DNA from: Lophium mytilinum
Taxonomy: Eukaryota
Assembly: GCA_010093605.1 (NCBI GenBank)
Contig: MU004197.1
Span: 496,001-560,000, forward strand
Length of the DNA: 64,000 bases
Reading direction: 5' to 3'
Shown here: positions 1,315-63,990 of the stretch, one piece after another
How the letters are laid out: every line of letters begins with the position of its first letter
How positions within the stretch are numbered: the first letter of the stretch is position 1
The notes under the pieces: generated by a model
Database searches by the model: none
The model's input: the letters and a program-made list of their open reading frames with translations, nothing else
What the model was told of the DNA's origin: nothing
Position numbers and translations under genes: made by a program

Positions 1315-1911
1315 ATGCTTTCCTTCTCCACCGCCTTCTGTGGCGCCTGCGGTCAAACCCACTACGACATCTCCTCAGAGGCCGAGGTGAAGCTCTGGAA
1401 AGATCTGGAAGCTGCCAATGCCTCCGCCGACTCCCGCGCCGTCTCCGCCATCATCGCCATTCTCCGCGATTGTTCCGCGGCCAAAGACTGCCATGCCAAA
1501 CACACTATCCATCATGCGATCAGGCTCGAGGGTGAACGCATGAAGCTAGAGCAAGAGACGTTCGACCTGAAGGTGGAGATCAAGGATCTAAAGAAGGGAA
1601 ACGAGCGCCTCCCCAACGAGCGGTTTGATGGGCGGATGGAAAATCGAGACTTGGGCGGGAAGAAAGAGATGCTGGTTGGCGAGAAGGAGGAGGCGTCTCT
1701 GCCACGGAAACTGGTCTGCCAGGCCTGTTGCGAGAGCTCTGGAACGCGAAACAGCTTGTGTGATGGGAGGTACCCGTGTACCGAGTGTATGGCACAGGGC
1801 TATACGTGCTTCTACAAGAAGTGCTTCAAGACACGCAGCGGTGTTAGATGTAAAAGCTCTACGTGTACAATGTGGCACGGCGAGGAGGGGTATAGACATG
1901 GCGAGTTCTAG
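1315..1911 (+). CDS. Zn2Cys6-like/CCCH zinc-finger coiled-coil family protein (198 aa)
   Basis: N-terminal CGACGQTHY; C-terminal RKLVCQAC..CDGRYPCTEC..CFYKKC..CKSSTCTMWHGEEGY, a pattern shared with paralogs in the window. Confidence 0.8.
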   Translation: MLSFSTAFCGACGQTHYDISSEAEVKLWKDLEAANASADSRAVSAIIAILRDCSAAKDCHAKHTIHHAIRLEGERMKLEQETFDLKVEIKDLKKGNERLPNERFDGRMENRDLGGKKEMLVGEKEEASLPRKLVCQACCESSGTRNSLCDGRYPCTECMAQGYTCFYKKCFKTRSGVRCKSSTCTMWHGEEGYRHGEF

Positions 1912-2510
1912 ACGGGGGTAGGACGTGGTCGTTGGTACGGGGACTATACAAACTGGATGTTGGGTAATTTGCAGCCCCAAACTCTACATAGTTCCGTTCG
2001 TTATTTGGGATACTTCAACATGTCATCGGAACTTGGCAGAGTGCTCAGAACCATGGAGGAAATTGATTCCACAAACAAATGCTACAGCTCTTGGACATAT
2101 TCTGGCTGTGTGAAGACACAAAACCAAACATACGGATTTTGGCCGGTAGCGTGCAGGATCTTTGCTGGGAGGTGCTCGAGAGAGCATGAAGGATTCCTAG
2201 AAAAATACTTTGGTGCTCCGGAGACTTCGAATTGTGTGATGTTCTCCTACTTGCCCGTCAGGTCAATGATGTTCGGGGGTCTGGTGCAGACAAACGTAGA
2301 AAAACTTGTGCAGTGGTGTATCCAGATGCCAAAAGGTATTTAGTGAGTTTGTCTAGTGATATCGGCACCAAGAAAACTTCCTAGTAAGGACGTAGACAAA
2401 CACTAGCACAAAGCATCTCCCCTACCTCTCACCCAGCTGTTTCAGTATCAGCCCAAAATTTCCTACCCACCGACGCATCTGGCCACTCCCACCCCACCTC
2501 CAAATCTACA

Positions 2511-2990
2511 ATGGATATCATCAATACCTGTTTCCCCAAGATGCTCTGCAACGACTGCGGCACCGAGCACTACAACCTGACGGACGAAGAAGAAGACAAC
2601 CTCTGGAACATCACTGACGGTGGCGAACTAACCGCCCAAATCATGACCATCCTCCACGACAACTCAAATCGAAAGCGTTGCCTATTCGATGCCGTTAATC
2701 GCAACGACCCCTCTCTGAAGTACCGCTTGGACAAGAAGGTGGAGACTTTCACGCACTTGGAGAGAACGTTCATTGTGCTTCAGAAAGACCATGTGGATCT
2801 GAAGGCGAGTTTTGACCAGCTGAGGAAAGCTACCATGGAGCGAGTGATAGTGTACGAGAGGAGAACACGAGCTCTATTAGAGGAGAAGAAGGCGTTGGAG
2901 GCGCGGAGTACGCAGCTGGAGTTGGGGATTGCCACGTTCAAGAGTCTTGGGCTAAGCGTGATGAAGGCTAGAGGGCATGGAGACATTTGA
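2511..2990 (+). CDS. Truncated family member: N-terminal CxxCxxxH domain + coiled coil, no C-terminal fingers (159 aa)
   Basis: CNDCGTEHYNL..LW..IMTILHD..KRC aligns with the N-termini of the genes at 1315, 10403, 61664 and 63990. Confidence 0.7.
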   Translation: MDIINTCFPKMLCNDCGTEHYNLTDEEEDNLWNITDGGELTAQIMTILHDNSNRKRCLFDAVNRNDPSLKYRLDKKVETFTHLERTFIVLQKDHVDLKASFDQLRKATMERVIVYERRTRALLEEKKALEARSTQLELGIATFKSLGLSVMKARGHGDI

Positions 2991-3221: not shown

Positions 3222-4040
3222 CTACGTCTTTGTCTTGATAGCGCCCTCGCTCTGGCCAATCTCCCGTGCGATATCAGCGTCATAGCCATATCCCAATTCA
3301 TCGTGAATCGCACTGCAGTTCTTCGTCCGGCAAGCTGCTCCCTTCTTCCCCTTCTCGCCGTTCTTGTATCGTCTGCATCGACCATATTTGCAACCCTCGA
3401 CAAGCTTGTCGACAGTGCAGTGTGCACAAGGAAGTTGTCCGTCGCAGGCTCTGCGCTGGCGGTAACAAGCCACGCAAATGAGCTTACGGGATAGAGCCTG
3501 GGCGAGCATTTCGGAAGGTGTGGGGACTTTTGGACGAGACGCTGCTGCGTCTGCTGGAGCAGTAGCGGATCGAAGCGCTATCAGCTCATCGACGACAGTC
3601 TTGTAGTCATGCCGGAGGTCCGCGTAGAGGGGACGAAGTCTGTAGAGCTCCGCTTGATCCTGCTCATGTGCGAAAGTGACGATTCTGGCGTTCTCCTTGC
3701 TATCTCTGAGCCTGCGGGATAGGTCTTGGGATAGCATTTTGTAAGGCGTAGGGGCATGTGGATAAGGAGTTGCTGCGTTTGTTGGAGCAGCAGCGGGTCG
3801 AAGCTCTGTCGCCTCTTCGGCGACAGCCTTGTAGTCTTGCCGGAGGACCTCATAGAGGGGTCGAAGTCTGTCGAGCTCTGCTTGAGTCTGCTCGTGGGCG
3901 AGAGCGGTGTTTCTGGCGTTCTCCTCGCTGTCTCTGAGCCTGTCTTCAGTGTCTTTGAGCTTCTTACGCACTTCTTGTATTTTCTTGTTCGTTCTGTTGC
4001 AGGTGGAGCACTTCTTGCCGTCACAGTCCTGATCTGGCAT
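3222..4040 (-). CDS. Zn2Cys6-like/CCCH family protein with a 76-aa internal duplication
   Basis: First ATG at 4040 (MPDQDC). C-terminal RKLICVACYRQRRACDGQLPCAHC..CKYGRC..CRTKNCSAIHDELGYG. 228-bp tandem repeat at 3486-3941. Confidence 0.8.
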   Translation of the reverse strand: MPDQDCDGKKCSTCNRTNKKIQEVRKKLKDTEDRLRDSEENARNTALAHEQTQAELDRLRPLYEVLRQDYKAVAEEATELRPAAAPTNAATPYPHAPTPYKMLSQDLSRRLRDSKENARIVTFAHEQDQAELYRLRPLYADLRHDYKTVVDELIALRSATAPADAAASRPKVPTPSEMLAQALSRKLICVACYRQRRACDGQLPCAHCTVDKLVEGCKYGRCRRYKNGEKGKKGAACRTKNCSAIHDELGYGYDADIAREIGQSEGAIKTKT

Positions 4041-4451: not shown

Positions 4452-4622
4452 TCAAGCCATGCACAATTCCATCTCCAGAACATCATCATCACCATCATTC
4501 TTGTTCTTAGGTCTTGCTTGTGGGAATACAGTACGTCCACCGCTGCCCAGGAAGTTCCCTCCCACTCGACTCGGAATATCGTGAGCCGCCTCCCGCAGGA
4601 TGTCATCGTTGAAGCCACACCA
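4452..4622 (-). pseudogene. 3' fragment of a family gene paralogous to 8292-9215
   Basis: CGFNDDILREAAHDIPSRVGGNFL..MELCMA versus CGFDDDILREAAHKISSRVGGNFL..MELCLA; the upstream part is missing. Confidence 0.75.
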
Positions 4623-4623
4623 T

Positions 4624-4866
4624 AAATGCAAGAGCATACACGATGAGATGAGATATGGTTACGATGGTGGTATTCGGCGTCAGGCAGGACACCAGACTTC
4701 ACCTCCAGGCGGACATCACCCTATGCATGAACTTCGTGGGCCCCGGCGTCAGAAGGAGCGCGTCCTTCCCCCGATCACTGGAAAGAAATGGCCGTGGGAG
4801 GAAGGGCGCAAGGAGGCGGATGAGGAGCTTGAAGTGGAGACTGAGATGGAGTTGTGCTTAGTTTGA
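4624..4866 (+). pseudogene. 3' fragment of another family gene
   Basis: KCKSIHDEMRYGYDGGIRRQA..MELCLV matches the family CxxxHxExGYG tail and the MELCLx end. Confidence 0.65.
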
Positions 4867-8291: not shown

Positions 8292-9215
8292 TCAAGCCAG
8301 ACACAACTCCATCTCCATATCGTCATAATCGTCCATATCCTTAGGTCCTGCTCGCGGAGATACAGTGCGCGCACCCCTCTCTAGGAAGTTACCTCCCACA
8401 CGACTCGAAATCTTATGAGCCGCCTCCCGCAGGATGTCATCATCGAAGCCACATCCCATCTCGTTGTGGATAATGAAGCACTTCATCCTCTGGCATGTAC
8501 GTCCCTTCCTGTTCTTGTAATAGTGGCACCGCTTGTACTCGCAGTCCCTGCCGGTGCTGGTGCAGTTCTCACAGGGAAACTGTCCGTCGCATACGTCGTG
8601 GTGGTTCCAGCAGAGTTTGGACACAAGTTTGCGAGCCGCGGCTAGGGAGGCCACGTTGTTTGAGGCTGAGTGTGCTGCGCTGCGGCAGGCTGGAAGCGGA
8701 AGAGCATAGCGAGGAGCTGAAGGGTCAGTGAGAGCCATGGAGAAAGTTCCAGTCTGGGCAACGGGAGCCTGTGAGAGTTTTTGGGGGTCAGCAGGACGCA
8801 GAGGAAGGCAGATAGTGGAGGAGGTGGTGAGAATGGCTGTGGCTCTCAATTTGGACAGTTCACTCTTCAATCTGGAGACCTCATCTTCCAATTTTGAGAT
8901 ACGGTCTGTCTTTTTCGAGTCTTCGGCGAGGAGGGTATTGTAGTTCTGGCGGACGCTTTCGAACAGTGCTCTAAGCTGTTTCTTCTCTCTCTCGCAATGT
9001 TCCAGCATGGCGCTGCTCTTATCGGCCTGCTGCTTGTGCTTACTGGCGTAGTTTCGGAGGGCCGACACCCTACGGTTTGGCTTCGTGGCACAGGTAAGGT
9101 CGGTGTGTGTCTTGTCAAGAGCGACGTGTGGCTTTGCGGAATTGACCATCTCTTTGACGAAACTGTTCATCTCTTCCGGATCTCTGCCTGCCACTTCGTG
9201 GTTGCCGTGCGACAT
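8292..9215 (-). CDS. Zn2Cys6-like/CCCH family protein (307 aa; first cluster Cys replaced by Ser)
   Basis: Coiled coil followed by RKLVSKLCWNHHDVCDGQFPCENC..CEYKRCHYY..CQRMKCFIIHNEMGCG. Confidence 0.8.
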   Translation of the reverse strand: MSHGNHEVAGRDPEEMNSFVKEMVNSAKPHVALDKTHTDLTCATKPNRRVSALRNYASKHKQQADKSSAMLEHCEREKKQLRALFESVRQNYNTLLAEDSKKTDRISKLEDEVSRLKSELSKLRATAILTTSSTICLPLRPADPQKLSQAPVAQTGTFSMALTDPSAPRYALPLPACRSAAHSASNNVASLAAARKLVSKLCWNHHDVCDGQFPCENCTSTGRDCEYKRCHYYKNRKGRTCQRMKCFIIHNEMGCGFDDDILREAAHKISSRVGGNFLERGARTVSPRAGPKDMDDYDDMEMELCLA

Positions 9216-9489
9216 GTTAGCAAAGATAGAGAAAAATGCTGGTGGATGGATGGTGCGCGGTTTGCACCTGCTATTGTGGTCTTCGGGTTAGGAGGAGTAT
9301 CGTATGGTCACCGGGAACAATAATGAGTGGTAAGGTAGTAGTTAGGTGCTATTCACCTTCTCTCTGGGGATGCACATGATCCAATGCTGAGTACCATGCA
9401 AAAGCTCCCCTCAGCTATCACATCTAGTCCATTGTTCCTGCCCGCTTCTTCCTCCCTTCTACCTTGTTCGCCTCTTCCTGCTGCTTCGC

Positions 9490-10403
9490 CTAGCTCTTCT
9501 TTTCTGCGTCTTCGCGGATGGCGTCGTCGAAACCATATCCGCGCTCTTCGTGTACGTTGTTGCAGTTGCTGCTCACACAACCGTTTGGCTTGCGGCCGAG
9601 CATTTGCTCCCTATAGCGACGGCAGCGGCGAAATTTACACTTCATCTTCGACTTGCTGCATTCAGAGCAGTTGGCTTCGCCATCGCAGTCTTTGTTGAGA
9701 GTGTAGCAAGGCGTGCACACAAGCTTGCGACCTGCAGTGACGGCGGAGCGCAATGCAAGCGGCTGCGAGAACGGGGTGCGCATGATTGCCTGGCTTCGAA
9801 CGTGTTCTCGGAGAACTGTCAACTCGGCGGACATGTCCTCGCGGACTCGAACAAGACGCGCTTCTGAGATGTGCTAGACACAAAGTCGTTAGCTGTGAGA
9901 TTAGAAGGACAGTTTTGAAAGTGTAAGCTTACCGCTTTCTCTGCTGCAACTCGATGAATGGTAACTTCTCTCTCCGCGGTGTCCAGCTTCGACTGTAGGT
10001 AGGCTATCTGTGCCTCGAGTGTAGCTCTCATACGAGCCTCCTCTGCCTGCATCTGTGCCTTTTCGGCCGCCTTCTCCAGCTGTACCGCCGAGAGCTTCTG
10101 CTGTAAGATGCTGATCTCCTCCTCTAAGATCTCCTCTACGCCTTCCAATGCCTCAGATAGGCATTCGTCCTTCTCTTCCCAGCGCTTGATTTCATTGGCC
10201 TGAAAGTCGATTTGACGGGCCGCAATGGCTTGCTCGCAGTTCTTCGCCAGTGTGAGATCCCGGAGGACGAGAAGGATCTCCTGTCGCTCTGACGGCTCGA
10301 GATTGTTGGTGCCAAGGAGGGAGTGCAGTCGTAGCTGTTCATTCACTTCTACGAGGTAGTGCATGCCGTTGCACGCAACGCAATGGGAAGTAGGGTACAA
10401 CAT
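9490..10403 (-). CDS. Zn2Cys6-like/CCCH family protein, one intron (9874-9932)
   Basis: The two ORFs join in frame through a 59-nt GTAAGC..CTAAC..TAG intron. N-terminal CVACNGMHY; C-terminal RKLVCTPC..CDGEANCSEC..CKFRRC..CVSSNCNNVHEERGYG. Confidence 0.85.
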
Positions 10404-11212
10404 AGCAGCCCGCTCGTAGGAGTGCAGAGAATTGCCCCGGTGAGCTGAGAATGTGGTGAAGTAGCGGTGTTGGCGAGACGAGATGTTGAAGGGGGGAGGT
10501 TGTGAAGAGGTGAGGAGTCGAGGAGGTGCTGCGACGGGCTAGAAGTACTCGTTTGCGATGGTGCGGTGGGGATTCACCGCCCCGCTACCCGGCAGAGATG
10601 TTGTGGACAGACTGTTTACTTGGGAACGAGTGCATAAATCGGCTTTCACGTGGTATCAAGTTATGTACACGTGATCAGGCTGCTGAGTCATCTGCCAAGG
10701 CCACACGAAATATTTTCCTATAAGAGCTCGCTTGCCCGTCCAACTTCCGTTCTCGCACCACCTTCCTCACATCTTTTTTCACCACCATCTCGCATGCTAC
10801 CACCACTCTATAGGCCAGTAGATCGACTGCGGTGCGTTGGGGAATGTTCGTGGTCCCCTTCCACCGTTAAGGCAGTCTTTCGTGCGATACGAGAGGAGGA
10901 GGTTGGCCAGGAGGGCAAACGGTTTGCTTCTTTTCAGGGGGACTGTTGCGTTGGTCCTCTTTGGGGGAGACACCCTCCCGACGTCGCCTCACCATCTGTC
11001 GTTTCGCGCACGAGGAACCGTCAAGTGGTTCGAGCCGACCTCTGTCTTTGCAGCACCAAGACAAGTCCTCGTTCTCACGGCATCGCCATCGGTACCCTCG
11101 AAACGCAAGGGAGAATGCCGCGGCGATGGAGCCAGCTTTCGGATACCCAGGCCGTTCGCCCGCATACCCCCCATCGTCCGTTGGATCTCCAGGTGGCATG
11201 CACCCGCTGCTA

Positions 11213-11320
11213 AGGTAAGTCAGGTATGTTGTCCCTCCCCCCCCAGCGCCGAGTTCGCACTTCTTCGCAGTGCTGGGGACCAGTAGCCTTCGGGCAAAGC
11301 TAGGACGAACTCATCATGTA
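11213..11320 (+). ncRNA. Conserved structured RNA element, copy 3
   Basis: One mismatch versus copy 1 over 108 nt. A TATAA at ~10718 and a CT-rich tract lie ~500 bp upstream. Confidence 0.6.
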
Positions 11321-11676
11321 TATAATAATTAATTCACACCCTTCAATCTAAGTCCTGACTGCCTTCTTGATATGGCTTGGTGATGTCATGACGTGTTTGT
11401 CCAGCTGCACGGTTCCAACAGGAAACTCTGCACCAGCACTTACCCATGAACAGCATCAATGGCAAATCTATCAGCATTCTCACCTGTTAGTAGCCGCCAT
11501 TGGTCTCATTGACTTCACTGCTGATCTTTGCCACCACGCCATCAAAATCTTTTCATGAACATCCTCCAGCCCGTGGGTTTCACCGGCCAGGCAGGTCGTT
11601 CTCTGAGACTACGTCATTACTTCAGCTCCCCCGTCCCAGCCAAAATCAAAGCCGACTATTCACCAGCACCGCGAAC

Positions 11677-12060
11677 ATGCTGCCTAGGATCGCGGCGTCC
11701 AAGGTACACAAAGCACTGAATGTAAGGCTACTCCCGTAGTCTCGAAAACCGCAGGAGACGATCCAAAAGTCCGAAGTGACAGCCGAAGCTGTGCTAGCAA
11801 AACCGGCTGGGGGAGTGAAAGGGCTTGTTCGATCCCGCATATCGTTCGAAAGTCGCACGCTAACGACTTGATACAGACGGCTATCGACTGAGAGCTTCTG
11901 AAAGCCTTCCCACACTCTAGAGAGCCCTGGCTGCTCTGCGCGAAGAGCGCGAGAGACTTCGGCCTGTCGAATCGGTTGCGCATATAAGGAACGCCCTACT
12001 AAGTATGGCGGTGGGTAGAGCTGAGTTGGACAATGGGAGGAATGGTTGGAGAAGGAGAGA
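11677..12060 (+). pseudogene. Degenerate paralog of the 7446-7920 gene
   Basis: Shared GCTGCT..GAGACTTCGGCYTG..GCCCT segments. The downstream 12060-12245 region aligns with 7930-8115. No intact ORF. Confidence 0.45.
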
Positions 12061-13808
12061 CAGACGGAGGGATATTCTCAGTCAGCTGGAGCTAGATCCA
12101 ATGACCATGGTGCTCAAGTTCTGTCTACAAATTGCATCCAAAGAAGGAAAAGACACGTATGCGACCATTGTCGCGTCACAAGTGTTGGCATTTCAGGGCG
12201 CGGATCACTAGTACAAGTTGGGAATATCAACAGGGAATGGGGGTAGTACATATGCTCGTCCTTTGAAACTCAATAGAACGACAGTATCATTTGTTACTGC
12301 CCCAGCTATATACAAGAGTCGTACCGACTTCTCCTCAACGCCTGAGGTAATAAGAGGAAGTTAGCAACTTCGCAAATGTAAACAAGGCATTTACTTACGT
12401 GAAAGGCTTGTTAGTGGCGCCACCATCCTTCTAGCGTGTCGCAGCAGGGGACTATCAACCTCCTCCCGACCTAAATGAATGATATGGCAGTCGAGACATG
12501 CCACTGGAAAGCCTCCGGCTGGATGCGCAGTCCCTTACGAAACGAAAGTGCCATGAAGCCTCGCGAGCACAAACCCCCTTGTGAGTTGCCCCCCAGACAG
12601 GAAAGTGAGTGGCAGCTTCAGAGATCATCATGACACCAGGTTTCGCGAGTCGACAAAGGTGATGTCGGTTGTGGTGTGGTTCTCTTCGCCGAACGACGTA
12701 TGAGCTCCCACGGCACAAAAGCGTCCTTTGCCGAGCAGTTCAGCTTTCTAGCCAAACCCAAGAAAAGAGAACGAATCCGAGGATGTGGCATGTGGTGGGG
12801 GTGGGAGATCAGAGATTGAGGTGGTAGAAGGATGGAGAGAGAAAGTATTTGCGAGGAAGGACTTGCTTAAGTAGAGAGCCGGGAATGAATGATCAGTGTC
12901 GCACGTGAACGGAGGTCCAATACATGGGATCTCGTCATTCTATTCACTAATCTTTCGATTGTCCCAGATCTGAGATTCCTACTCATAAGGGACAACTCTT
13001 GTGCGATATATCAAGATATTACATGCATGCTAAAACGACGAACTGAAATTTATGAGAATAAGACTCAGACAACGCACTTGAATACAGCAAATCTTTAATC
13101 CAAGTGTAGCGGCAGTCCGAAACCATTTTAGGTGACCTCGAGAGTTGTCAAGTTTGCCAAAACTGCTACTCTACAGACTGTGATACCAGACTAAAGGGCA
13201 TCTACCAGTAACGGGCCTGAATATAGAAGACAAGCACACAAACCCAGAGAAAGAAATAGCATATAAAACCTAAATACCAAGTACATACAGCTGTCTGTGT
13301 CCAATCTATAAAGCAGCCTGTCCGTATCTATCTACTATGCAACCACCCCCAACACTGGCACAAACTAGATTAGCTTGAATAAATCTGGAACCAAACTGAA
13401 AATCCTCAATGCCACGCCAGACAGTGAAGATGTGGAGACAAACGTTCAAGTGCACCTTTTTCAACCTTGCCACTGTTGGGGGTTCCCCTAGAAACATTCG
13501 AAAGTGTAAACCAAAGCAACAGTCCATGCATTGAAGAACAGACTAGTATTTGACGGACAGCGTACTATTCAGCTGGACTGCTTCTGACAGAGATTTAGAC
13601 GAACACGACTTAAGTTAGTGTACCGTGCATAGAAGGGCAAGCTACCTTTCGACTGCCAGCCAACCATTCAAGTAGGGTCCTCCCGACAGTGACATAGACC
13701 GAGCAAGAACAAAGCCCTCATATCAGCATCCCCACACACCAGATCCACAACTGCCCCCTACGACACCACCACCCCAATCCTTCCATGCCACAACACACCT
13801 CCCTAATG

Positions 13809-15035
13809 CTACAAACCTCTCTTCCTCTTCCCCGCCACCACCCCGCCTCCCACCTCCTCCCCGCCCCTATCCAGCGAAGCAGCCTTCCTCCTCGCCGCAT
13901 TACCAATCTGCAGATCCCACCCATACCCCAGCTCGCTATGCACCGCAACACATCTCTCCTTCGTGCAACCAAACTCTCTCGACCCGTTTGCGAGCTTCCT
14001 ATGCTGCTTGCACAGCTCGTACCGGCACTTCTGCGCGTCTCCGATGCCAACGCAGTAAGCGCAAGGATGCGCGCCATCGCAGTCTCGACCGAGCTTGCAG
14101 CAGGTCACGCAGTCGAGCTTCCGGGGCCCTGATGGGCGTGGAGAAGGGGAGATCGGGGGATAGAGCCCTGGCGGCATCGTGGGGCTGGTGGCGGGGATGA
14201 TGGGGGTTTGAGTGGGAATGGTAGGTCCGATCGTTGCTTCGTCTGAGCATTCGGACTTCAACTTCGTCTCCTCCGCGCGTTCGGAAACCGGAGCCTCCTT
14301 ACTAGCCGCCCTAAGCTGCCTGACTTCCGCAACAAGTCTATCATTGCTGTCCGTAAGCCGCTTGATCTCGCCTTGATTCGCCGCTTTCCACCTTCGCGCA
14401 TCCACCTCCGCGACCCTCAACTTTATCGAAATCGCATCACGCTCCCTCTGAAGCGCCGCTATCATACGCTTCGTGTCTATGGCCGTGACGGCCGCGATCT
14501 TCAGATAGCTAGCCTCTAGCGCACCGTGATGTTTCTCAGCTGTTTCGCGCCATTCCCTCTGGTTCTCGAACCTGTCATTGGCTATCCGCAACTCGACGCG
14601 GAGTAGATCAAGCTGCGCTGCATCGTGCTGCCGCTCTGTGTGCCACGCGGCGTGCTCTTCTTTCAGCGCGTCGTGCAACTCGGCGGCTGATTCGCGCTGG
14701 AGCTTCTCGTTCGCGTACCGCTCGTTGGCAATCTGCACCTCGACGCGGAGTAGATCGAGCTGCTCTACGTTGTGCTTCCGCTCCGTGTCCCGTGCGGCGT
14801 GTTCTTCCTCTCGTGCCTTTATGAAAGCATGCTGTTCCATCCTTAACTCGTTAGCCTCGGCGGCGAGCGTGGCCACTGCGCAGTCGATGGATGCGCGGAT
14901 CTCGTGTGCTGCGTCGGTAGAGTCTGCCGTCCGGTATCGATCGATGAGGAGCATCAAGGCGGCTTGGTTGGAGGGTACGGGGATCTCGTGGTGGGTCTGG
15001 CAGATACGGCAGGGCGTGGACCCGGAGGAGGACAT
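13809..15035 (-). CDS. Zn2Cys6-like/CCCH family protein (408 aa) with a 49-aa internal duplication
   Basis: N-terminal CRICQTHH, long coiled coil, then RKLDCVTC..CDGAHPCAYC..CRYELC..CTKERCVAVHSELGYG. Confidence 0.85.
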   Translation of the reverse strand: MSSSGSTPCRICQTHHEIPVPSNQAALMLLIDRYRTADSTDAAHEIRASIDCAVATLAAEANELRMEQHAFIKAREEEHAARDTERKHNVEQLDLLRVEVQIANERYANEKLQRESAAELHDALKEEHAAWHTERQHDAAQLDLLRVELRIANDRFENQREWRETAEKHHGALEASYLKIAAVTAIDTKRMIAALQRERDAISIKLRVAEVDARRWKAANQGEIKRLTDSNDRLVAEVRQLRAASKEAPVSERAEETKLKSECSDEATIGPTIPTQTPIIPATSPTMPPGLYPPISPSPRPSGPRKLDCVTCCKLGRDCDGAHPCAYCVGIGDAQKCRYELCKQHRKLANGSREFGCTKERCVAVHSELGYGWDLQIGNAARRKAASLDRGGEEVGGGVVAGKRKRGL

Positions 15036-15670: not shown

Positions 15671-17213
15671 TTACTTACCCCCTTGCGCAGTCGGCTCGTT
15701 CCAATACCAAACCTTCGACTTCCTCAAAAGCACCTTCTCTTCCAACTCCCCACTAACCAAGCCCGTCCCAGCACCAGCGTGTCTCCTAACACCCCCGAAG
15801 CACATCCAGCCATACTCCGGATCCTCCGAGCCGGCGTGAAACACACTAAGAACCTCGGTTTCGTCGCGATCAAGAGGAAACGGACTATAATCCTGCAGCC
15901 ACACGTATCTATACCTTGATCTACCGTGGTCTGCGTTCCAGTTAATACGATGCGCAAGCTTGCAAGCGTCTTCAGCGATTTGGATAAGTGCGAGCTTTAC
16001 GAGGTTTCGCGCTTCTGTGGCTATGGCGGGCGGGTAGGCGTAGAATTCGGAAAGGCCGCTGGAGATGACGGATTCGAGGTATTCAGCGGCGAGGCGGGGG
16101 TAGAGGGTTTGGTCGATGTCTAGAATTTCATTGATGGTTAGTGGATATGGCTAGGTACGATGGGAGTTGAGGCTTACCGATGTTGCTCTGAGCTAGTTTG
16201 TCTATTAGTTCCTCTAATTCAGTAATCTTTGCTATGTGATGCTGATTATGTTCGTCCGGGGGCCGGTGAGAGGTATCAGACGTCTGGGTCGGCGATGGTT
16301 CCATAGGTGGCTCGTAGCGGAAGAAAGTCTTAAACAATTTGAGCCCGATGTACCATCTCAGAAAGAGTGATCGCATCTTCTCGTATTGCGCAAAGTTTTC
16401 CCATTTGTCTGTGACGATAGGCTTATAGCGTAGTATCATGTTTGAGACTCGTTCGATCGAGATATCGAGATCGCTGAAGAACGTAACGACATCCCTATCA
16501 GAGAGGGCTGCTTTGAACAGCTGAGAAACTTGAGAGCTAGGTGGAGCGCTTTGGGCAGTGCTAATGGAGTATCGAGGGTCATCATGCCGGGGCAGCGAGA
16601 CGAGGCGCTTGGTGATGTCTTTTGTGAGATTTTCCTTAAGTTCAGTGACAGTGTGTTGGAGCGATGGTAGCACCTCTTCTGCCAGAGTTCGACTCTTGCC
16701 TTGCTTGCCCACCCCCTGATGGCCACCTGAATCACCTGGACTATGTTTAAGTTGTGTTGTAAGCTGTCTGACCTCCTTCATAAGACGCTCATTCTCGGGC
16801 TGCAGCTTGTCCACCACCACCTTCAATGTATCGCACTCCGATATAGTCCCTTGTAGCAGATTGTTTGTCTTTTCCAAGCCCGAGTTCTCTATGACTAGTC
16901 CCACCATCTTTCGGCGTAGACTTTCGAGCTCCTCGTTGAGACTCTTTACATCGGGCGCTCTAGAGAAGTAAGGTACTCGATGGAGTGCTCCGAATGGGCC
17001 GTATGAAATTGGCTCGTCTGCTGCGCCATTCGATGTTTCGTCTGAAGCTTCACCGGCCGTTCCTCCATTCCGAGCATCGTGAACCCTGTATGCTCGATCG
17101 CGCCGGACACGGAAGCGGTCGATCGCGTCTTGGAGGTAATGTTTTAAGAGGGCCTGGAAATTCGGGTCCTTAGGGTCGATGTCCGGCGGCCAAGCACCGC
17201 TTCCATCGGCCAT
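15671..17213 (-). CDS. Hypothetical coiled-coil protein, 2 exons
   Basis: ATG at 17213. A GTAAGC..TAG intron (~16120-16178) joins the long ORF in frame to a 3' exon ending ..KSKVWYWNEPTAQGGK. Confidence 0.7.
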
Positions 17214-18449
17214 GCTGATCACAAGTATAGATTGGAGTGGGCAGGGGACGCGGAAGAAATTCTTGGAGTCCTAAGGACTGGGGAAGATCGGAGCTGGTCT
17301 TCTTTGTTACGAGCGGCCAAGGCCTGCTCCCCGAGAAAATGCGAACAGCTTGACAAAGAAGTCTGAGCATATTCGTACCACGTGCTTAGCAAGTTTGAGG
17401 ACTTTTGGGTGTCGCCGAAGTTTGCTTTATTCAAGCTGCAAGTCGGATGATTGTGTGATGAAGAATTATTTCAGTGATTGAAGTTCAAAGATCAGAATGA
17501 GATGATGAGAGCACATTAAATAATACCTAGCCTTGGTATGGCCTACCTTGCCTTAGAGCGGCTGTAAAACACTGGTCTCTCTTCTAGTCAGGTCCTCCAT
17601 ACCCGTACGTTACTTTCTGAAGCGCCTCAGTCGACTAAGATGGCCTTCAGAAGCCCTCAAAAGACCCTTTAATCCTCCAAGGAGGCGGTCAATGGACTTA
17701 CCTGATGCGCAAATTGCACATGTTGGTTTGAAGACCCCTGAACAGTGTTAAGTAACAAGTGTCAAAAACAAGATGAGATAAGAAGACGCGCAACGACTCG
17801 TAGTGGATCCAAAAGGGATGAGCGGACGTCTGGCTCCGCCCTTGGCTAGACTTCGTAGCTGGAGAGCACAACTGTGGCTCTATGCAATCATCAAGACCAC
17901 AGCCAAATAGCGATATATACAGCCTTTCTCTGGGATGAATATCAAAGAGATGCTGATGAGAAAGTCACGATGCAGTCTCGGTGTTTGAGATTTCTGCGGC
18001 GATCACTGCCCCAACCTGACGCGCCCGCCCACGCTAATCCCCGTCGACCCCCAGCCTTATCTCTAAACTTAGCCCCAAGTCCAACAGACAGCCAAAGCTT
18101 ACGCAAAAAGTTACGAGGGCTGTGATTTCCGCGTTACGTATGTAATTTGTCGTATTCAAAATGGAGTACATTCCTTAGCGTTTTTCTCCGTGCACCCCCC
18201 CTAATTTTATAAGCGCGCGCCTAGGATTATTAGATAGGTTATATATTAATTTTTAACTACTTTTTAATATACCTATATTAGCTATTAGTAAGGCCTCTTA
18301 TATATATATTAGAGCTTATATACTAATAATTTTTAGTATTTCTAGTATAAGTTAATAACTTAATCTATAGTTAAATTCTTCTCTCTATTAGCGCGTAAAC
18401 CTAACTCTAGAATTAAACCCTAATATTAGCCTTACAGCGCCTAGATATT

Positions 18450-19450
18450 ATATAGCTTCTTTAGCTTAATAAGTACTCTAAATAGATTACTAAGGTTATT
18501 TATATCTACTAGAAGATAGTATATAATATAGAAAAATATATAATTCTCTATAGCGCGCCCGTAAGGCCTTTATAACTTAAAATAGAATAGCTAAAAAGAC
18601 TTACTATAGTAGATAAAAAGGCGGTGCTTTAATAGCTTCTAGAAGATAGCTAGCGTAATTAAAATAAGATTTAAATATAGCTTAATTTTAAGCATAGTAT
18701 TAGAGCTTTATAGCTAACTATATTATATATAATAAAGAGAAATAGATAGAGTAAGAAGTAGGCCTAGCGCCAGTTAAACTACGTAAGTAAGAAGTTAAGG
18801 TTAAAGTACTTAGAGCTTACTAGTTACTATAAGCTAGAAAATCTTATCTTTCTTAATAAGTCTATATTTAATAAGAAGACTAGCTAGTACTATTACATAT
18901 ATATATCTATTAAAAGTCCTGCACGCTACTAGGGGCCTATAAATTATAGAAATATATAGAGTATATACGTAGTAATAAGTATAGTAGAGTAGCTACTATA
19001 TATAGCTATATAAGAGAGCTACTTTAATACTAAGAAGTTCTAAAGCTAGATTATTACTACTTTTCTACTAGCTATAGAAGGCGAGTTTAAGGGCCGCTTA
19101 AAAGTTATTATTCTAGATAATATTAGAATATATACTAAGAAAGCTCTTATATATATAATCTAGGCGTAAGAATATCTAGTATATTTTCTACTACTATACT
19201 TGCTAGATTTTAACTCTATAAAGTTAACCTTTACTATACTAAAGGCGTAGATCTATAGGTATTACTATTATCTACGCCCAGCCTATTATAACTTTAGTAA
19301 CTTTCTAAGAACTACTATTAAGTAGAGCTAGTATAATTACTTTACTTAAAAGTAGTTCTATTATATAGCTAGAGAAGTATACTATATAAGAGAAGAGATA
19401 GATAGAATTTAGGCTAAGCTAGATGCGTATAAAAGAGGTAATACTAATAC
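18450..19450 (+). pseudogene. RIP-degenerate DDE (IS630/Tc1-like) transposase
   Basis: Translated remnants LIFLNKS (from LVFLDES), VIILDNIRIY (VIVLDNARIH) and FLLLYLLDFNSIKLTF (FLPPYSPDFNPIE). Boundaries approximate. Confidence 0.75.
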
Positions 19451-19579
19451 TTAAGTTAAGAAGAAGTAGATAGAGAAGTAGGTTAAGGCCTAAGTATATA
19501 CTATATATAGCCTTTCTATTTAATATATACTCTATATATAGCCTTACTATTTTAGCCTTACTATTTTCTATATACTCTC

Positions 19580-21185: not shown

Positions 21186-21202
21186 AATACCCCCTAATTA
21201 AT

Positions 21203-21290
21203 AGATAGTATATATATTATAGGTAGTATATATATTATAGATAGTATATATATTATAGATAGTATATATTAGATAGATAGTATATATCTA
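21203..21290. repeat. AT-rich minisatellite, ~16-18-nt unit (TAGATAGTATATATATTA)
   Basis: 4-5 tandem copies visible. Confidence 0.7.
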
Positions 21291-21381
21291 TTACTATATA
21301 CTCTACCCTCTATTACCTAGTAGAGTAAGATTAAATACTACTTTATTCTTCTAGTATAGCTGCTTAAATCTATATAGCTTC

Positions 21382-28595: not shown

Positions 28596-28599
28596 CTTC

Positions 28600-49177: not shown

Positions 49178-49539
49178 CGAGTGCCGAGGAGGCGTTTCCT
49201 TTGCGTTTGGTTTAGGGTGGGGGTTTTGGGTTGGTTTCGGTTGGGTAGGGAAAGGTAGCGTGAGGGGTGGGTTCAGTTCATTAGTCTTTTCCTTTTTTTG
49301 AAGGTTTTCGAGGTTGACGGTGAGGGTTGAGGTGATGTGTGGGATTTTAATATCTTACTTCCTGGGTCTTGACTTCGCCGTTCTCGCTGGTAAGCTTTCT
49401 GGGCGTCTTTTCCGATGCCGACAAGTCTGAGCTCTACCTTCATCTCTTCTACTCAAAGCCCACGCGCTGGGCTTGTTCTTTCTTTCTTCACTTAACCGTC
49501 TCTAGCCTTGCCACCGGGAAACAAACGACAGAAACAGCA

Positions 49540-49800
49540 CCGCTCTCAGAAAGCCCGCGCAATCTCCAGTTCGCGACCTGCCACGGCTTCGATCACCGCT
49601 GCGAGGGCGCGTTCCCATGCCATACGTGCATGAATAAAAGTGAAGGGGACAAGTGCCGATGTGACATCTCCAAAGAGCATGAGAAGTTAGCGAGGGGAAG
49701 CGAGCGTACGGTTGCTGAGATGGCAACTGTGGTGCCGCTTCTGAAGAGCTCAGGTTTAGGTCGGACGAGAGTATCAAGGATGCTGGTTTCAATAGAACTG
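49540..49800 (+). pseudogene. Degenerate Zn2Cys6-like/CCCH family remnant
   Basis: RNLQFATC..CEGAFPCHTC..KCRCDISKEHEKLARGS, then after a frameshift AYGC*DGNCGAASEEL; parallels the C-terminus of 13809-15035. Confidence 0.6.
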
Positions 49801-51382
49801 CTACTTGCTAGAAAGGTGAAAGCGGTTGAAAAGGTGAAGGGTAAAAAGCGCGTCAAGCGGGATGGCTATGAGATGAGGAAGGCTGCCGAAGATGTTGAGA
49901 AGAGGGCTAATGATGAGGCGACGGATGTGGATAAGCTGGCTTCGCGGAAGCAGAGGAAGGGGGATGCGTTCAAATTGGCGGGGATAAGGGGCTTTGGCGC
50001 TATGTAGGCACGGAACGACTTTTAAAGTTATGGACACGGATCGGTTGCTGGAGAGCTTTACGGGCATGTGCGTGGAAGCAACCGCCTTTGGAGGATTCCT
50101 GTTATAGAGGGGTTCCTGATACGGAAGAGTCTTAGCTTAGCGATGTGGCGTGGTCTCGGGAAGCTCTACTAGCCGTGATATCGGCGACAATTTCCTTCCA
50201 TTCTGCGTCAACTACCCTGGCGAAGCTGGCAAAAGCTACAACGTTGCTGTGCCAGTGTATGGGCACTTGACGATATTGTTTTACACTAAGCGTTAGAGAG
50301 TCTTTGACAGATCTACCTTTCCGGGCCTAACGATGGAGACATTGGAAGATCTGTTCCACGCTCCAATGATGGGCATGCACATGCACGTAGAGCACTCAAG
50401 CCTCCATAGTGGGGGATCCGGAATACTTAATCTAGATGAGCGAAATGGACATCATTGCCGCCGAAAACAACTGCATACAAGATTGACCGGTGCCATCCTG
50501 GCCCCTGCCGCAATGACCTAGATGCTGGTACGGCTTGACTGCGTTAGACTATACATCCCCAAGCGCCAGGTCTGTTAAGTGATGTCTCGTGGTATCACGA
50601 TCTATCACGAGGAGTCCGGCTGCGCGCCTTCGAATCAAACTTTCTATGTACATACCAGCGGTGCGTCAATGGTTGATATAAGTATGTCATAATGATAATG
50701 CATAGGTTCACCACTAAGCGCGGATGGCGTCCATCAGCTCCAGTCGTCGCTATACCCCTCCAGCTCTTATGAAGAACGCACATCATCACTGGTCACTGAC
50801 GGTAATCTGCATCATATCGTGGGCGCACAACACCTCCCAACCATATATCCACCCAGTCTCCGTTTTGAACCACCACACCATGGAAACGCCTTCATCTCTT
50901 TTGACCCCGTGCCACCAAATCCTCCAGTCCCACAAAACCATGGGGAGAAACTTAGCTCGATATCTTGAACCCCACAGAGGTGCGGTGTTCGCTGCGCTGA
51001 TTGCAGCCGGGGGAGTCAGAGGAGAGGTTCATATACCCGGTTGATGGGGGTGGCACGTGGGCGGCACGGGGTGAACGTGATGGAATGGGAGGGGTCACGT
51101 TGGTTAGCCTTCATAGGTTTGTGCGGCATTGTTTGTCCGTAGAACTGGTGGAGGTATCACGACCCGTGTTGAGATGTCTGGGGTAAGGCTGACTTGATCG
51201 CCCTGCCCAAAACCTAAGCATCAGTAGAGCAGCCCCCAATATCAATATGGTCCTGTGAGCGCGTGCAGTGCACTTTCGAATTGCGAAGAGTTGCTCATTC
51301 GTCTTTTCAATCCTACCAATCATTGGTACAAGCTAAATCGGGGGTATATATACCTACTCCATCTCCGCCTTCAGCTCTCTGA

Positions 51383-60662: not shown

Positions 60663-61664
60663 CTATCGGACCTGGTAAACCTTCTCGTCGTGAACGAAGC
60701 CGCAATCCGGGTTCAAACAGCCAACTTCGGTGTTGAAGTAAGCGCACCTGCTATACTTGCAAGTCAGATGATCCCGTCTGCAAAGCTTGCATGGGTAGCC
60801 ACCGCTGCATTCCACTCTGAGCGTATAGCACTTTTTGCACGTCAGCTTGCGACCTCTCCCTCCACGGGGCGGCATATGGGGCAGAGTATCTTCGACGTTT
60901 GCGCCCGTTGGAGCGGCAGGCAAGGGATGAATATTGACACCAGTCAGCGGAGGCATAGTCCTCTCCCGCAAGTTTCGCGCCGGGTTCGGGGCGGCAGGTA
61001 CATGTCTGGACTTCGCGATGCCTATTGGAGCAGCGCCCATGAAAGCCTTGCGACGGAGGTCTGCAACGCTCGGTCGGCGCTGCAGCGTATGGCGCTGATT
61101 ACCGTTGCCAGCAGCTGGAGTTTGTTCCCGTCCCTGGGCCCTCTCGAGCTGGCTCGCCAACTGCAGATTCTCTTCCCGGAGCTGCGCGATCATGTTGTCT
61201 TTGGCCTTCTTGCCTTCCTCCCACTTCTCTTCGATCCCCATGTGTAGGTCTTCATTTTGCTGGAGCGCACGTTCTTGGCCCTGCAGTTTGCGCTGCAGTT
61301 CAGTGATTAGATTGTTCTTCGTGTCGCGCTCGTGCTCTGCGGTAGCTAGCTCAGCGCGCGCGAGTTGGGTGTTGGTGTGGAGGGTTTCGTTCTCCTTCAT
61401 TGTGTCTTCTAGTTGGGCGATTATTCCCATCTTGTCATCGTGCTCCCGCTCTGCGGTCGCCAGCGCGTCACGCACGGCCTCTTGGCTCGCGCAGATTTTG
61501 GAAGTAGAGACATCTTGGAGAACGTCGCGGAGTTTGTCCTTCTCGATGGTGGAGAGGGTATCAAGTTCTTTGAACAGGGCCCAGAGATCTTTCTCGTCAT
61601 CGGCGGTGAGGACCCAATGGTCAGATTGGCAGATAGGGCAATGGCGGATGCCATACGTGTCCAT
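60663..61664 (-). CDS. Zn2Cys6-like/CCCH family protein (333 aa)
   Basis: N-terminal CPICQSDHW. C-terminal C-x2-C-x6-C-x5-C-x2-C-x6-C followed by C-x8-C-x4-C-x3-H (CAYFNTEVGCLNPDCGFVH). Confidence 0.85.
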   Translation of the reverse strand: MDTYGIRHCPICQSDHWVLTADDEKDLWALFKELDTLSTIEKDKLRDVLQDVSTSKICASQEAVRDALATAEREHDDKMGIIAQLEDTMKENETLHTNTQLARAELATAEHERDTKNNLITELQRKLQGQERALQQNEDLHMGIEEKWEEGKKAKDNMIAQLREENLQLASQLERAQGREQTPAAGNGNQRHTLQRRPSVADLRRKAFMGAAPIGIAKSRHVPAAPNPARNLRERTMPPLTGVNIHPLPAAPTGANVEDTLPHMPPRGGRGRKLTCKKCYTLRVECSGGYPCKLCRRDHLTCKYSRCAYFNTEVGCLNPDCGFVHDEKVYQVR

Positions 61665-63027
61665 GGTAAAGTTGTGGTGTGTCTGTGATAGTTGGGGTTG
61701 GATGTAGGTGTAGAGGTTTGCTCCTCGCTGTCTTTGATGAAGAATTTGCTATAATTTGGCGGGCCGAGCTCGGGTAACGGTGAAATTAAGGCATATGTTA
61801 TTTGATGAGTTGAGATGAATTCGCTATAGTGGGCCCATAGGCACCTGCACAGGTTGGTACTCATGTATGGAATGCTGACGTAGAGACAATGGAACAGTGT
61901 GTATGAATGTGCGGGGAGATACCCCTCATATAGGCCGTAGGTGGCCCTCTCCACTCCTGACTGACACTAGCATTACTGCTGAAACTGTGATATCGACGTG
62001 AAAAGTTAGAAAGTTAGACTGCGAGTTTTAAGCATCCTATTGTCTGGAGGGCGACCTGCCTGTGGAGCCACTCCTCACAACGGCGTAAAGCAAGCAAGAC
62101 TGAGGCTAAAGTAGGGCAATACTCCATCTGTATGCCTGGGGATAGAAAGTTCATCTCCTTCAACTACGTAGTGGATATCGAGCTACTCTTTGACTAGCTA
62201 GAAACTGACTAGCTAGGTCACCCTCACGGTGGCATTGGATAAGCAAGACTGAAGTCAATTCATGGTAATATCCGCTTTGTAAGCCTGGAAATGCGACAAT
62301 CACTTCTTCAACTTATATATGTGTCGATGAGGTGAACATTGGGCTATTCTTTGACTGTCCAGCGGCCTACTAACTAGGGCGCTCCTGACGATGGCGTTAG
62401 ATAGGCAACACTAAAGCTCTAAGGACACACTTTCCTTCAAACTTTTCAATATTTCGAGGTATCATTCGCAGTAAGGTAGAAGCACACACAAAGATATGAA
62501 GATGATTGCATAATTTACTACTTCCTAACAATCTTCCCCTCCAGACAATTTCGGTGCATGGTCTTGAAAAGCTATCTAGCAATACAAGAGTTACTGGATC
62601 TCGAGTTACACATCACGTTCCTCAAAGAACCAGGTTGTTGTCGCTGTAAGTTAAATGATTGCTGCTCATCTTGAGCTGAAAAGCTGATTAGCCCATGATC
62701 GAAAGTCGCCTGATATCCTCGTCAACCCATTTACAGTGACCAGTCAGAAGCCTATGCACACCCCTTTACCATTACATGGGGTACCCCCATAAGTGTTTAT
62801 GCCTTTAAGTGCCATGTCAAGTTCCAGGCAGTGTGAATTGGACCGCTCTTTGACTTACTGTTCAGTAACTGGCTGGGCGACCCCTGGCAGCGGTGTTATA
62901 TGAGCAAAATTAGAGCCAAAAAGGGATAAGTCCGCGCGCTTGGACTGCATCATATGCGTACTGTGCGAATTGATTGACAAAAACAACCGTCTATGGTCTT
63001 TCAGATATGCCCTCACCATTCCCATAT

Positions 63028-63990
63028 TCAACACCCATATCCGGGCTCGTCATGAACGGATCTGCAATCCACTAATTCACAATCTTCGTCCCCGTACTTG
63101 ACGTACCAGCACAGAGCAAAACGGCATCCTAAACGACTCAATAGACAAGCCTGGCAAGGAAACTTGCCGTCGCAGCCGATTTTGCGAACAAGGCAGTTGA
63201 TACATACGAGCTCGCGAGGAGGTGATATGGGGATGATGCTATGGGGTGAAATATCTCGCGAACTCAGCTTCGAAGCACTAGGCGTCATGGTAGGCAAAGA
63301 ATGGTCGCTGTCCTCCATGATTGAGCTTCCGCGGTGACTTGGAGGGAGTCCGAGATATCCAGGATAGTCGCTGAGAGTGAGCTTCTCTGCTTCAGTCCTC
63401 TTGATATTTGGGAGAAGCTGCTGTCTACGCTGCTCCATTTCGGCCATCTCTGTGCGGAGCTGCTCCTCGGGTTGTGAAGCCTCTGACTGCTCGCCTGGCC
63501 CCTGTGATCCTTCAGGGCGGAGTCCGAGGCGAAGAAATGGCACCTTCTCCTTTTTTGTTTTTTTCTGTGGCTTCGTTGCGTCCTTTGCCGCTCCTTTGCG
63601 CTTCAACCCCTTGGGTTGGGGTTCTATGACACTCTGTGGGGCCTTTATCTTTGCCTCTAGCACAACGCCCTTACGGGTTGAGGCAGAAGCTTCATCAACC
63701 TGGGCTTTCACGGTCCCCTGTTTCTCCGTTACCTTTCTTTCTAGCGCCACACGCCCCTGCGCCAACGCAAAGACTTCCTGGGCGAGGGTCTGGTTCTCTC
63801 GGAGAAGGGTCTTGTTGGCGCAGGCTTGTGCAGCACAACGATCTTCCAAGAGGTTGGAGATATCTTCCTTCACTTCGGTATCACTGGTTTCCTTTGAGAA
63901 GGCTAAGAGGAGCTTTTCGTTTTCGTCTTCGGGGAGTATGTAGTGACCCGTCTGGCACATCGGGCAGGGTTGGCGTCTAGGCATTTCCAT
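63028..63990 (-). CDS. Zn2Cys6-like/CCCH family protein (320 aa)
   Basis: N-terminal CPMCQTGHY; C-terminal RELVCINCLVRKIGCDGKFPCQAC..CRFALCWY..CELVDCRSVHDEPGYG. Confidence 0.85.
   Translation of the reverse strand: MEMPRRQPCPMCQTGHYILPEDENEKLLLAFSKETSDTEVKEDISNLLEDRCAAQACANKTLLRENQTLAQEVFALAQGRVALERKVTEKQGTVKAQVDEASASTRKGVVLEAKIKAPQSVIEPQPKGLKRKGAAKDATKPQKKTKKEKVPFLRLGLRPEGSQGPGEQSEASQPEEQLRTEMAEMEQRRQQLLPNIKRTEAEKLTLSDYPGYLGLPPSHRGSSIMEDSDHSLPTMTPSASKLSSRDISPHSIIPISPPRELVCINCLVRKIGCDGKFPCQACLLSRLGCRFALCWYVKYGDEDCELVDCRSVHDEPGYGC

Follow-up and report, generated by a model that had tools for sequence, protein, structure and literature searches.

A 64,000-nucleotide stretch of the genome of Lophium mytilinum, a fungus of the Dothideomycetes, order Mytilinidiales according to the taxonomy (GenBank assembly GCA_010093605.1, contig MU004197.1, positions 496,001 to 560,000 of the forward strand; this whole stretch is hereafter called the window, position 1 being its first letter), carries seven genes whose proteins end in the same zinc-ligand module. 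The module joins a cluster of the Gal4 type (Zn2Cys6), through four residues, to a stretch with the ligand spacing of a CCCH finger, and a heptad-rich stalk precedes both. We read these proteins as nucleic-acid-binding regulators oligomerised through coiled coils; most probably they are transcription factors that contact DNA in a non-canonical way, and to this reading we give a probability of about 0.5.

The module is about 60 residues long, with nine conserved cysteines and one histidine, and in translation it lies at the C-terminus in all seven window genes, following the pattern C-x2-C-x6-C-x5-C-x2-C-x6/8-C-x4-C-x8-14-C-x4-C-x3-H-x-E-x-G-Y. In the alignment of the seven modules an arginine, a leucine, eight of the nine cysteines, a glycine, the histidine and a glutamate are invariant. 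An earlier, sequence-only reading of the window had proposed that seven open reading frames (ORFs) share this C-terminal motif, with two exceptions, and on both counts it was right: the motif is present in all seven translations, the first loop of g1315 is lengthened to ten residues (C-x2-C-x10-C), and g8292 has lost the first cysteine. A profile of the seven modules, run against every stop-to-stop ORF of 25 amino acids or more in the six frames of the window, found the seven genes with expectation values (E) of 1.7e-24 to 6.5e-32 and, beyond them, two decayed copies, with nothing else below E=2. A chance origin of the seven-gene motif is excluded. The two relics are an addition to the seven copies listed earlier.

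For four of the seven window proteins a public protein with exactly the same sequence exists. One of the ORFs in the earlier list had to be redrawn: ORF 9490-9834 does contain the motif, but it is just the last exon of a gene at 9490-10403 on the minus strand (g9490), the N-terminal domain and heptad region of which are encoded by ORF 9819-10403(-). The intron between them (9874-9932, minus strand, 59 nucleotides, GTAAGC..GTCTAG) was removed, and the spliced translation equals the public protein P0003 exactly. Additionally, a 1,091-nucleotide contig from a public sequencing run (X1, guessed to be of RNA) joins 9427-9873 to 9933-10576, omitting exactly those 59 nucleotides; since the missing piece has GT..AG ends on the strand of g9490, the contig fits a transcript. 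Further X1 contigs cover g13809, and g8292 lies under none, which is uninformative either way. For g3222, the annotated start is the ATG at 4040 (as in the public protein P0004), rather than the TTG at 4109.

The family extends beyond the window cluster, and its named members come from several orders of the Dothideomycetes. A search with the seven-sequence profile against 1.84 billion representative proteins returned 204 proteins at E<=1e-3, 12 of which reach E<=1e-10; the module counts given here were taken from the 150 of these 204 matches that were listed. Among the matches listed, 52 proteins contain a complete nine-Cys-plus-His module by a strict regular expression, and 55 by a relaxed one. 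A single module is found in 45 of them; the median position of its start is residue 171, a median of 28 residues follow the histidine, and 31 of these 45 modules begin within the final 40% of the protein. Seven relatives (P0017, P0026, P0043, P0063, P0065, P0096 and P0137) have two or three modules in tandem, with the Nab2-type spacing C-x5-C-x4-C-x3-H-P, those with names being from Dothistroma septosporum and Lecanosticta acicola. Many relatives, 98-150 amino acids long, consist of the module without a stalk, and several short ones are made of the module and an acidic tail. Of 30 representatives looked up, every one with an organism name is from the Dothideomycetes; three of these were checked in the taxonomy, and we take the remaining named genera to belong there as well. 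The genera are Lophium, Mytilinidion, Aplosporella, Botryosphaeria, Diplodia, Massariosphaeria, Cucurbitaria, Neocucurbitaria, Fulvia, Dothistroma, Lecanosticta, Coniosporium and Cladosporium sp.

All named members are annotated as hypothetical, as uncharacterised or by a generic domain name, Pfam has no model for the Zn2Cys6-CCCH composite, and our literature search found no description of it, although the supplementary tables of one survey of fungal transcription factors (PMC5415576) may list proteins with a Zn cluster and a CCCH finger; within these bounds the family is indeed an unnamed one, as had been suggested. Two word-based homologue searches added little: the one with g13809 found no homologue among 8000 scored candidates, being too insensitive to bear on the range of the family, and the one with the family alignment returned two window proteins only, being too insensitive for a family that evolves so fast. 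Five matches of the profile search without the module were inspected and rejected as members, namely P0012, P0015, P0018 and P0020 (tandem Zn2Cys6-like clusters without the CCCH part) and P0008 (an odd repeat protein). The matches without the module also include P0144, a canonical factor with an N-terminal cluster. The first four are fungal-looking proteins with four to seven tandem clusters, an unusual array, and in P0018 a long N-terminal part is unrelated to its clusters.

That the first half of the module is a Gal4-type Zn2Cys6 cluster is well supported, both by profile matches to PUT3 and other Gal4-type factors and by structure comparison, and the earlier assignment is upheld. In a cluster of this type two Zn(II) ions are bound by six cysteines, two of which bridge. 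The canonical spacing C-x2-C-x6-C-x5-12-C-x2-C-x6-8-C is found in five of the seven window proteins (g1315 and g8292 being the exceptions), and in a 42-sequence alignment all six cysteines are at least 90% conserved and the CDGxxPC core is kept. In sequence, the family profile matches PUT3 (E 8.6e-5) and Pho7 (1.5e-3), followed by Leu3, Hap1 and Cep3, with an alignment that spans Cys1 to Cys6. The Pfam comparison proposed with the earlier reading gave a pass for g63028 only (Zn_clus, PF00172, 28.7 bits for a threshold of 21 bits); g8292 (14.6) and g60663 (12.7) match below threshold, and the other four window proteins have no match at E<=1. Among 55 relatives the threshold is reached once, and nine match at E<=0.01. 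None of the seven window proteins matches Fungal_trans or Fungal_trans_2 in Pfam at E<=1, in agreement with the claim that a fungal transcription factor middle domain is absent.

An AlphaFold2 model of the g13809 module, built with the 42-sequence alignment, has a predicted local distance difference test score (pLDDT) of 81.2, with 85-91 over residues 11-70, and a predicted template modelling score (pTM) of 0.64. Its helices at residues 12-17 and 28-32 are comparable to the two short helices of the Gal4 fold, each of which starts at a CxxC. When this model was compared with 48,161 PDB representatives (VIA-align), no more than ten chains reached Z>=2, each of them a Zn2Cys6 DNA-binding domain, with Pho7 at Z 3.9, Lac9 at a root-mean-square deviation (rmsd) of 1.1 Å over 32 residues and Gal4 at 1.5 Å over 38. 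A second-look structural alignment gave the same Zn2Cys6 set, and the top Foldseek rows were Hap1, Pho7 (rmsd 1.7 Å, 30 columns), Cep3, Put3, Gal4, Ppr1 and AlcR, at E values of at least 0.1. Because the domain has only about 35 residues the Z-scores are low, and therefore they rank folds and do not prove one; the structural argument lies in the exclusiveness of the hit list, not in the score. In the ESM Atlas, residues 300-356 of g13809, submitted as the module alone, align to Zn_clus parts at template modelling (TM) scores of 0.43-0.49, and one Ascomycota cluster is reached at 0.76, a lead only; the whole g13809 protein had no usable feature match in this resource, and structure rows at TM 0.18-0.29.

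In Gal4-type factors it is the basic loop between Cys2 and Cys3 that contacts DNA, and in this loop the family departs from PUT3, where the equivalent loop is RKRHIK. The six-residue loops of the window proteins read YRQRRA, WNHHDV, YTLNKD, CKLGRD, YTLRVE and LVRKIG. The statement that the basic loop is mostly lost and variable is confirmed by the wider set, in which the mean number of Lys and Arg is 1.2 per six-residue loop and the first position is Tyr, Trp or Phe in 49 of 58 such loops and never Lys or Arg. The module as a whole carries a positive net charge in 55 of 61 cases among the matches listed (mean +4.3), and the Cys6-x4-Cys7 linker is enriched in Lys and Arg.

The assignment of the second half is weaker, coming from ligand spacing and from weak Nab2-type matches in relatives, and we refer to it as a putative CCCH finger. 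The spacing C-x8-14-C-x4-C-x3-H, four residues past Cys6, is found in seven of seven window proteins, and so this part of the earlier claim stands; for the finger fold that it named, on the other hand, the window proteins gave no convincing structural match and no PDB sequence match. CCCH (C3H1) fingers have ligand spacings in the range C-x4-15-C-x4-6-C-x3-H. Of 64 modules in the family, 62 have four residues between Cys8 and Cys9. The 42-sequence alignment shows no change at C64 and H68 and at least 90% conservation at C44 and C59, and the CCCH part of the model has a pLDDT of 85-88. The best CCCH match in Pfam for a window protein is that of g60663 to Nab2-like_zf-CCCH (13.8 bits, cutoff 27). 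Two of the multi-module relatives, P0017 and P0026, do pass the Pfam model Nab2-zf4 (30.1 and 28.1 bits, cutoff 20), and four more of the 55 relatives have sub-threshold CCCH matches. P0017 also has weak PDB matches to Nab2 (E 0.056) and CPSF30 (E 0.11), and two family members are labelled 'C3H1-type domain-containing' in UniProt.

Between the N- and C-terminal domains, all seven window proteins have Pro-free, charge-rich heptad segments with hydrophobic a/d positions (by a home-made heptad score, which in three of the seven lies above all 100 shuffles), and many coiled-coil families of Pfam match weakly, all below threshold. This stalk is probably a coiled coil, and its position upstream of the cluster agrees with the order given by the sequence-only reading. 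That parts list, a coil and then the composite, was nevertheless incomplete, as five of the seven genes (g1315, g9490, g13809, g60663 and g63028) encode a further N-terminal domain with the pattern C-x2-C-x3-H-x~41-C (here the CCHC domain; [YWFE] follows the His), which is also present in six relatives. Its C9, C12, H16, L27 and C58 are invariant in an 11-sequence alignment. The motif occurs in 8 of 52 module-bearing representatives among the matches listed, and those with names are all from Lophium or Mytilinidion. An AlphaFold2 model of the g60663 domain (pLDDT 86.9) shows a beta-hairpin with the CxxC, a helix and a long helix with the last cysteine; Foldseek found no match for it at E<=4, and VIA-align found generic helical hairpins and coiled-coil caps only (Z <=5.8, with 4,599 chains at Z>=2), the look-alikes being Gp7-myosin fusions, Cnm67 and lamin. 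The linker that precedes the module is rich in Pro, Ser and Ala, and is among the less conserved regions of orthologue pairs.

At least three more L. mytilinum members lie outside the window (P0011, KAF2490295; P0032, KAF2490320; P0009, KAF2490337) and share one 1,605,038-bp scaffold with P0003, and four members of Mytilinidion resinicola (KAF2811214, 216, 227 and 235) are likewise on one scaffold of 1.99 Mb. In a tree of 65 modules (62 columns, with many forks unresolved) the two genera form the pairs g60663-P0006 (support 100/97), g13809-P0007 (100/99) and P0032-P0056 (100/99), and the multi-module proteins form a separate group (91/99). The existence of these cross-genus orthologue pairs means that the paralogues predate the split between Lophium and Mytilinidion, and the cluster is inherited, with no recent burst. 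Overall identity in the three orthologue pairs is 47-71%, and the module is their best-conserved region (78, 61 and 67%, against 58-71, 30-39 and 37-41% elsewhere); paralogues are 19-37% identical, and their synonymous sites are probably saturated. Considering the conservation of the module, the low identity of the orthologues and the two relics, we are led to a fast-evolving birth-and-death family with a constrained zinc module. The seven genes and the two relics are described in Table 1.

Table 1. Members of the family and decayed copies in the window, with their parts (numbers are window positions unless residues are stated; E is that of the module profile)
Feature	Position	Strand	Product and relation	Parts
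g1315	1315..1911	+	198 amino acids, identical to P0005 (ORF 1315-1908)	N-terminal CCHC domain 1315-1509; short heptad segment; module 1687-1908, 10-residue first loop
g3222	3222..4040	-	272 amino acids, identical to P0004 (ORF 3225-4040)	Degenerate N-terminal motif (CSTC...N); two heptad segments; module 3264-3506, net charge +10
g8292	8292..9215	-	307 amino acids, identical to P0002 (ORF 8295-9215)	N-terminal Cys pair gone; heptad segment, residues 86-134; module 8427-8651 with Ser for Cys1 and GCG for GYG; acidic tail
g9490	9490..10403	-	284 amino acids, identical to P0003 (KAF2490302.1); exons 10403-9933 and 9873-9490	N-terminal CCHC domain 10209-10403; long heptad segment, residues 61-164; module 9511-9747
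g13809	13809..15035	-	408 amino acids; same letters as an ESM Atlas protein	N-terminal CCHC domain 14841-15035; heptad segments; Pro-rich linker; module 13899-14141 (modelled); KRKR near C-terminus
g60663	60663..61664	-	333 amino acids; orthologue of Mytilinidion resinicola P0006 (71% identity)	N-terminal CCHC domain 61470-61664 (modelled); heptad segments; linker; module 60666-60869
g63028	63028..63990	-	320 amino acids; sole one of the seven above the Pfam Zn_clus threshold	N-terminal CCHC domain 63796-63990; heptad segment; long low-complexity linker; module 63031-63234
Relic	4585..4863	+	E 0.0018	CCCH-finger end (KCKSIHDEMRYGYD) and acidic tail EMELCLV remain, the tail like that of g8292 (EMELCLA); Zn2Cys6 part gone, in-frame stop upstream
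Relic	49351..50004	+	E 2.8e-6; nearest to g13809	Keeps CEGAFPCHTCMNKSEGDKCRCD...KLARGSER; first Cys pair missing; CCCH remnant out of frame, with a stop and without the His

The cluster shares the window with genes of other kinds, including a NAP nucleosome-assembly gene, a dehydrogenase of the D-2-hydroxyacid/3-phosphoglycerate type, a dynamin-like gene and a class V myosin gene (Myosin_head E 7e-227, with IQ and DIL). The GC content is about 0.50-0.57, except in an AT-rich block of 14 kb at 17500-31500 (GC 0.36), which shows a bias of the kind left by repeat-induced point mutation (RIP): TpA/ApT is 1.75 against 0.67-0.78 in the flanks, and (CpA+TpG)/(ApC+GpT) is 0.45 against 1.21-1.22. No ORF of at least 100 amino acids is found between 17222 and 30585, and the block is probably a RIP-mutated repeat island that separates the gene cluster from the housekeeping genes. 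At its edge, a 364-amino-acid ORF (16128-17222, minus strand) contains a heptad-like stretch (ELESLRRKMVGLVIENSGLEKTNNLL), without the zinc module and without any Pfam match. Between g9490 and g13809, the X1 contigs at 10770-11165 have the greatest depth seen (about 96-110), and contig blocks 11463-11721 and 11877-12243 are linked by a 155-nucleotide GT..AG joint on the plus strand; there is probably an unannotated spliced gene at 10650-12250, in which Pfam found nothing for ORF 10650-11213. Two adjoining plus-strand ORFs at 45546-46890 match zf_UBZ (25.1 bits, just under the cutoff of 25.6) and Peptidase_C78 (E 6.7e-24), and are likely parts of a single gene with an intron, which would encode a cysteine peptidase of the ZUFSP/UfSP type carrying ubiquitin-binding zinc fingers.

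We infer nucleic-acid binding and a regulatory role, and the parts could work together as follows. Proteins of the Mytilinidiales subgroup can start with a small domain that holds four conserved zinc-type ligands (C, C, H, C) and leads into the stalk, and the heptad-rich stalk would form dimers or higher oligomers, which would therefore hold two composite zinc modules side by side. In each module four residues link the Gal4-type cluster with a C-x5-14-C-x4-C-x3-H finger, and the combined ligand set would accordingly take up three zinc ions. This basic C-terminal module would bind nucleic acid, sequence-specific DNA-binding regulation of transcription being its likeliest role, and since the loop is variable and led by an aromatic residue while the basic residues cluster around Cys6-Cys7, the contacts would be unlike the reading of CGG by Gal4. 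The genes themselves, which we take to be real and expressed, are vertically inherited in a tandem cluster which gains and loses copies.

Several observations weigh against this picture of DNA-binding regulators. DNA, RNA and protein ligands are indistinguishable by sequence, and the loop between Cys2 and Cys3, with its low content of Lys and Arg, is not basic. The Zn_clus threshold is met by just one window protein in seven and one relative in 55, all structural Z-scores are low (<=3.9), and g8292 has no Cys1. For the CCCH half, a profile of the window proteins finds nothing among PDB sequences at E<=10, and the sole CCCH structures among the Foldseek results are those of MBNL1, at ranks 21 and 25 with probabilities of 0.02-0.03. 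The heptad score is a home-made heuristic by which four of the seven proteins stay within the maximum of 100 shuffles, and the RNA nature of run X1 is a guess.

Other readings of the same proteins have to be set beside the one that we prefer. A somewhat doubtful one takes Zn2Cys6-x4-CCCH as a single new three-zinc fold unit, in which the Gal4-type cluster has left CGG reading and joins the CCCH lobe in binding RNA or a non-canonical nucleic-acid target; these would then be the first proteins with a Gal4-type cluster to act outside classical promoter binding, and the Mytilinidiales cluster would be a set of rapidly diversifying paralogues, oligomerised by coiled coils and differing in specificity. 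It is unlikely, in our view, that they are plain RNA-binding proteins, with the CCCH finger as a Nab2- or CPSF30-like working surface and the degenerate Zn2Cys6 cluster as its scaffold or as a second RNA-contacting lobe. Single-stranded RNA would then be read by modules in tandem, or by oligomers formed through coiled coils, much as tandem CCCH proteins read it. Such a role would suit the basic modules and the loss of the canonical DNA-reading loop, as well as the seven tandem-module relatives (two passing Nab2-zf4, two more matching zf-CCCH_2 below threshold) and the weak matches of P0017 to Nab2 and CPSF30 structures. Nevertheless, these matches to RNA-binding CCCH fingers are marginal, with none in the PDB for window proteins and a best window Pfam match as low as 13.8 bits for a cutoff of 27, and the aromatic residue two positions before the His that is typical of RNA-stacking CCCH fingers is Phe or Tyr in just 18 of 64 modules. 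Moreover, the six ligands and the CDGxxPC core of the cluster are conserved beyond what a mere scaffold might need.

Binding of nucleic acid is given up altogether if the zinc domains are protein-protein knobs at the ends of a coiled-coil scaffold, such as a cytoskeletal, spindle-pole or organelle-tethering adaptor, which we judge to be rather improbable. An architecture made up mainly of heptad segments and capped at either end by a small zinc-type domain would fit such an adaptor, and so would the likeness of the N-terminal model to generic coiled-coil helical caps only (Z <=5.8) and, again, the lost DNA-reading loop; yet many relatives of 98-150 amino acids have the module and no stalk, the module is basic in 55 of 61, and some relatives have acidic tails that resemble activation domains. 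As the N-terminal domain is present in only 8 of 52 module-bearing representatives, a scaffold with two knobs is therefore not the ancestral design. A last reading, to which we attach very little probability, sees in the ORFs decaying or selfish relics of a duplicated or mobile segment near a RIP-mutated island, with no function for the host. The window does contain two decayed copies, both Cys1 and the N-terminal Cys pair are missing from g8292, the cluster flanks the 14-kb AT-rich block with its RIP-type bias, and orthologues from the sister genus are just 47-71% identical. But the seven copies retain long open frames with few or no ligands lost, orthologues resemble each other most in the module, and the gene-bearing flanks have normal GC and no RIP bias; three orthologue pairs show the vertical descent of distinct paralogues, named members span several orders of one class, and the X1 contig that lacks the intron is consistent with the transcription and splicing of one gene, if the run is of RNA as guessed.

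If our preferred reading is correct and the module binds DNA, regulators are undercounted in censuses of transcription factors in the Dothideomycetes, to which many plant pathogens belong, and there is a new recognition mode to describe. No family of fungal transcription factors is larger than that of the Zn2Cys6 proteins, whose usual marks are a basic cluster at the N-terminus, a coil behind it and the middle homology region; the inverted order of parts, the lost basic loop and the welded CCCH finger are together the reason why standard domain models miss most members of the present family. Binding of RNA by the module would, for its part, be a functional departure for the Gal4-type fold. The tandem birth-and-death cluster with orthologues in the sister genus is also a natural series on which to follow the diversification of a specificity loop.

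A Zn2Cys6 cluster at the C-terminal side is not in itself unprecedented, as Ume6 of S. cerevisiae is a Zn2Cys6 factor with its cluster near the C-terminus. To our knowledge, Ume6 has neither a CCCH finger nor a coiled-coil stalk and is unrelated to the present family. It appears as a table entry in PMC4025492. Fungal transcription factors of dual specificity have been analysed as combinations of C2H2 fingers with a Zn cluster (the Cmr1-like family of A. nidulans; Shelest 2017, PMC5415576), and the composite at the C-terminus, the four-residue junction and the coiled-coil-first order are not among the features described in the available text of that work. The Nab2/ZC3H14 and CPSF30 fingers have in common with the family the spacing C-x5-14-C-x4-C-x3-H and, for some relatives, the tandem repeats; they differ in that the family's CCCH finger is always fused behind a Zn2Cys6 cluster, has a first loop of 8-14 residues in the window proteins, and is followed after the His by a conserved H-x-[ED]-x-G-[YF] tail. 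The closest comparison is with the Gal4-type factors (Gal4, Put3, Hap1, Ppr1, Leu3, Pho7, AlcR, Cep3), which share with the family the six-Cys spacing, the CDGxxPC core, the predicted fold, the restriction to fungi and the presence of a heptad or coiled-coil element. In their canonical order, however, the cluster is N-terminal and the coil comes after it (PMC4025492), whereas in the family the cluster is C-terminal and follows the heptads, Fungal_trans is absent, the loop is led by an aromatic residue, and an extra finger with CCCH spacing is added. The family would work in the manner of the Gal4-type factors, to which it is distantly related, and departs from them in the canonical position of the cluster, in the basic loop and in the middle homology region.

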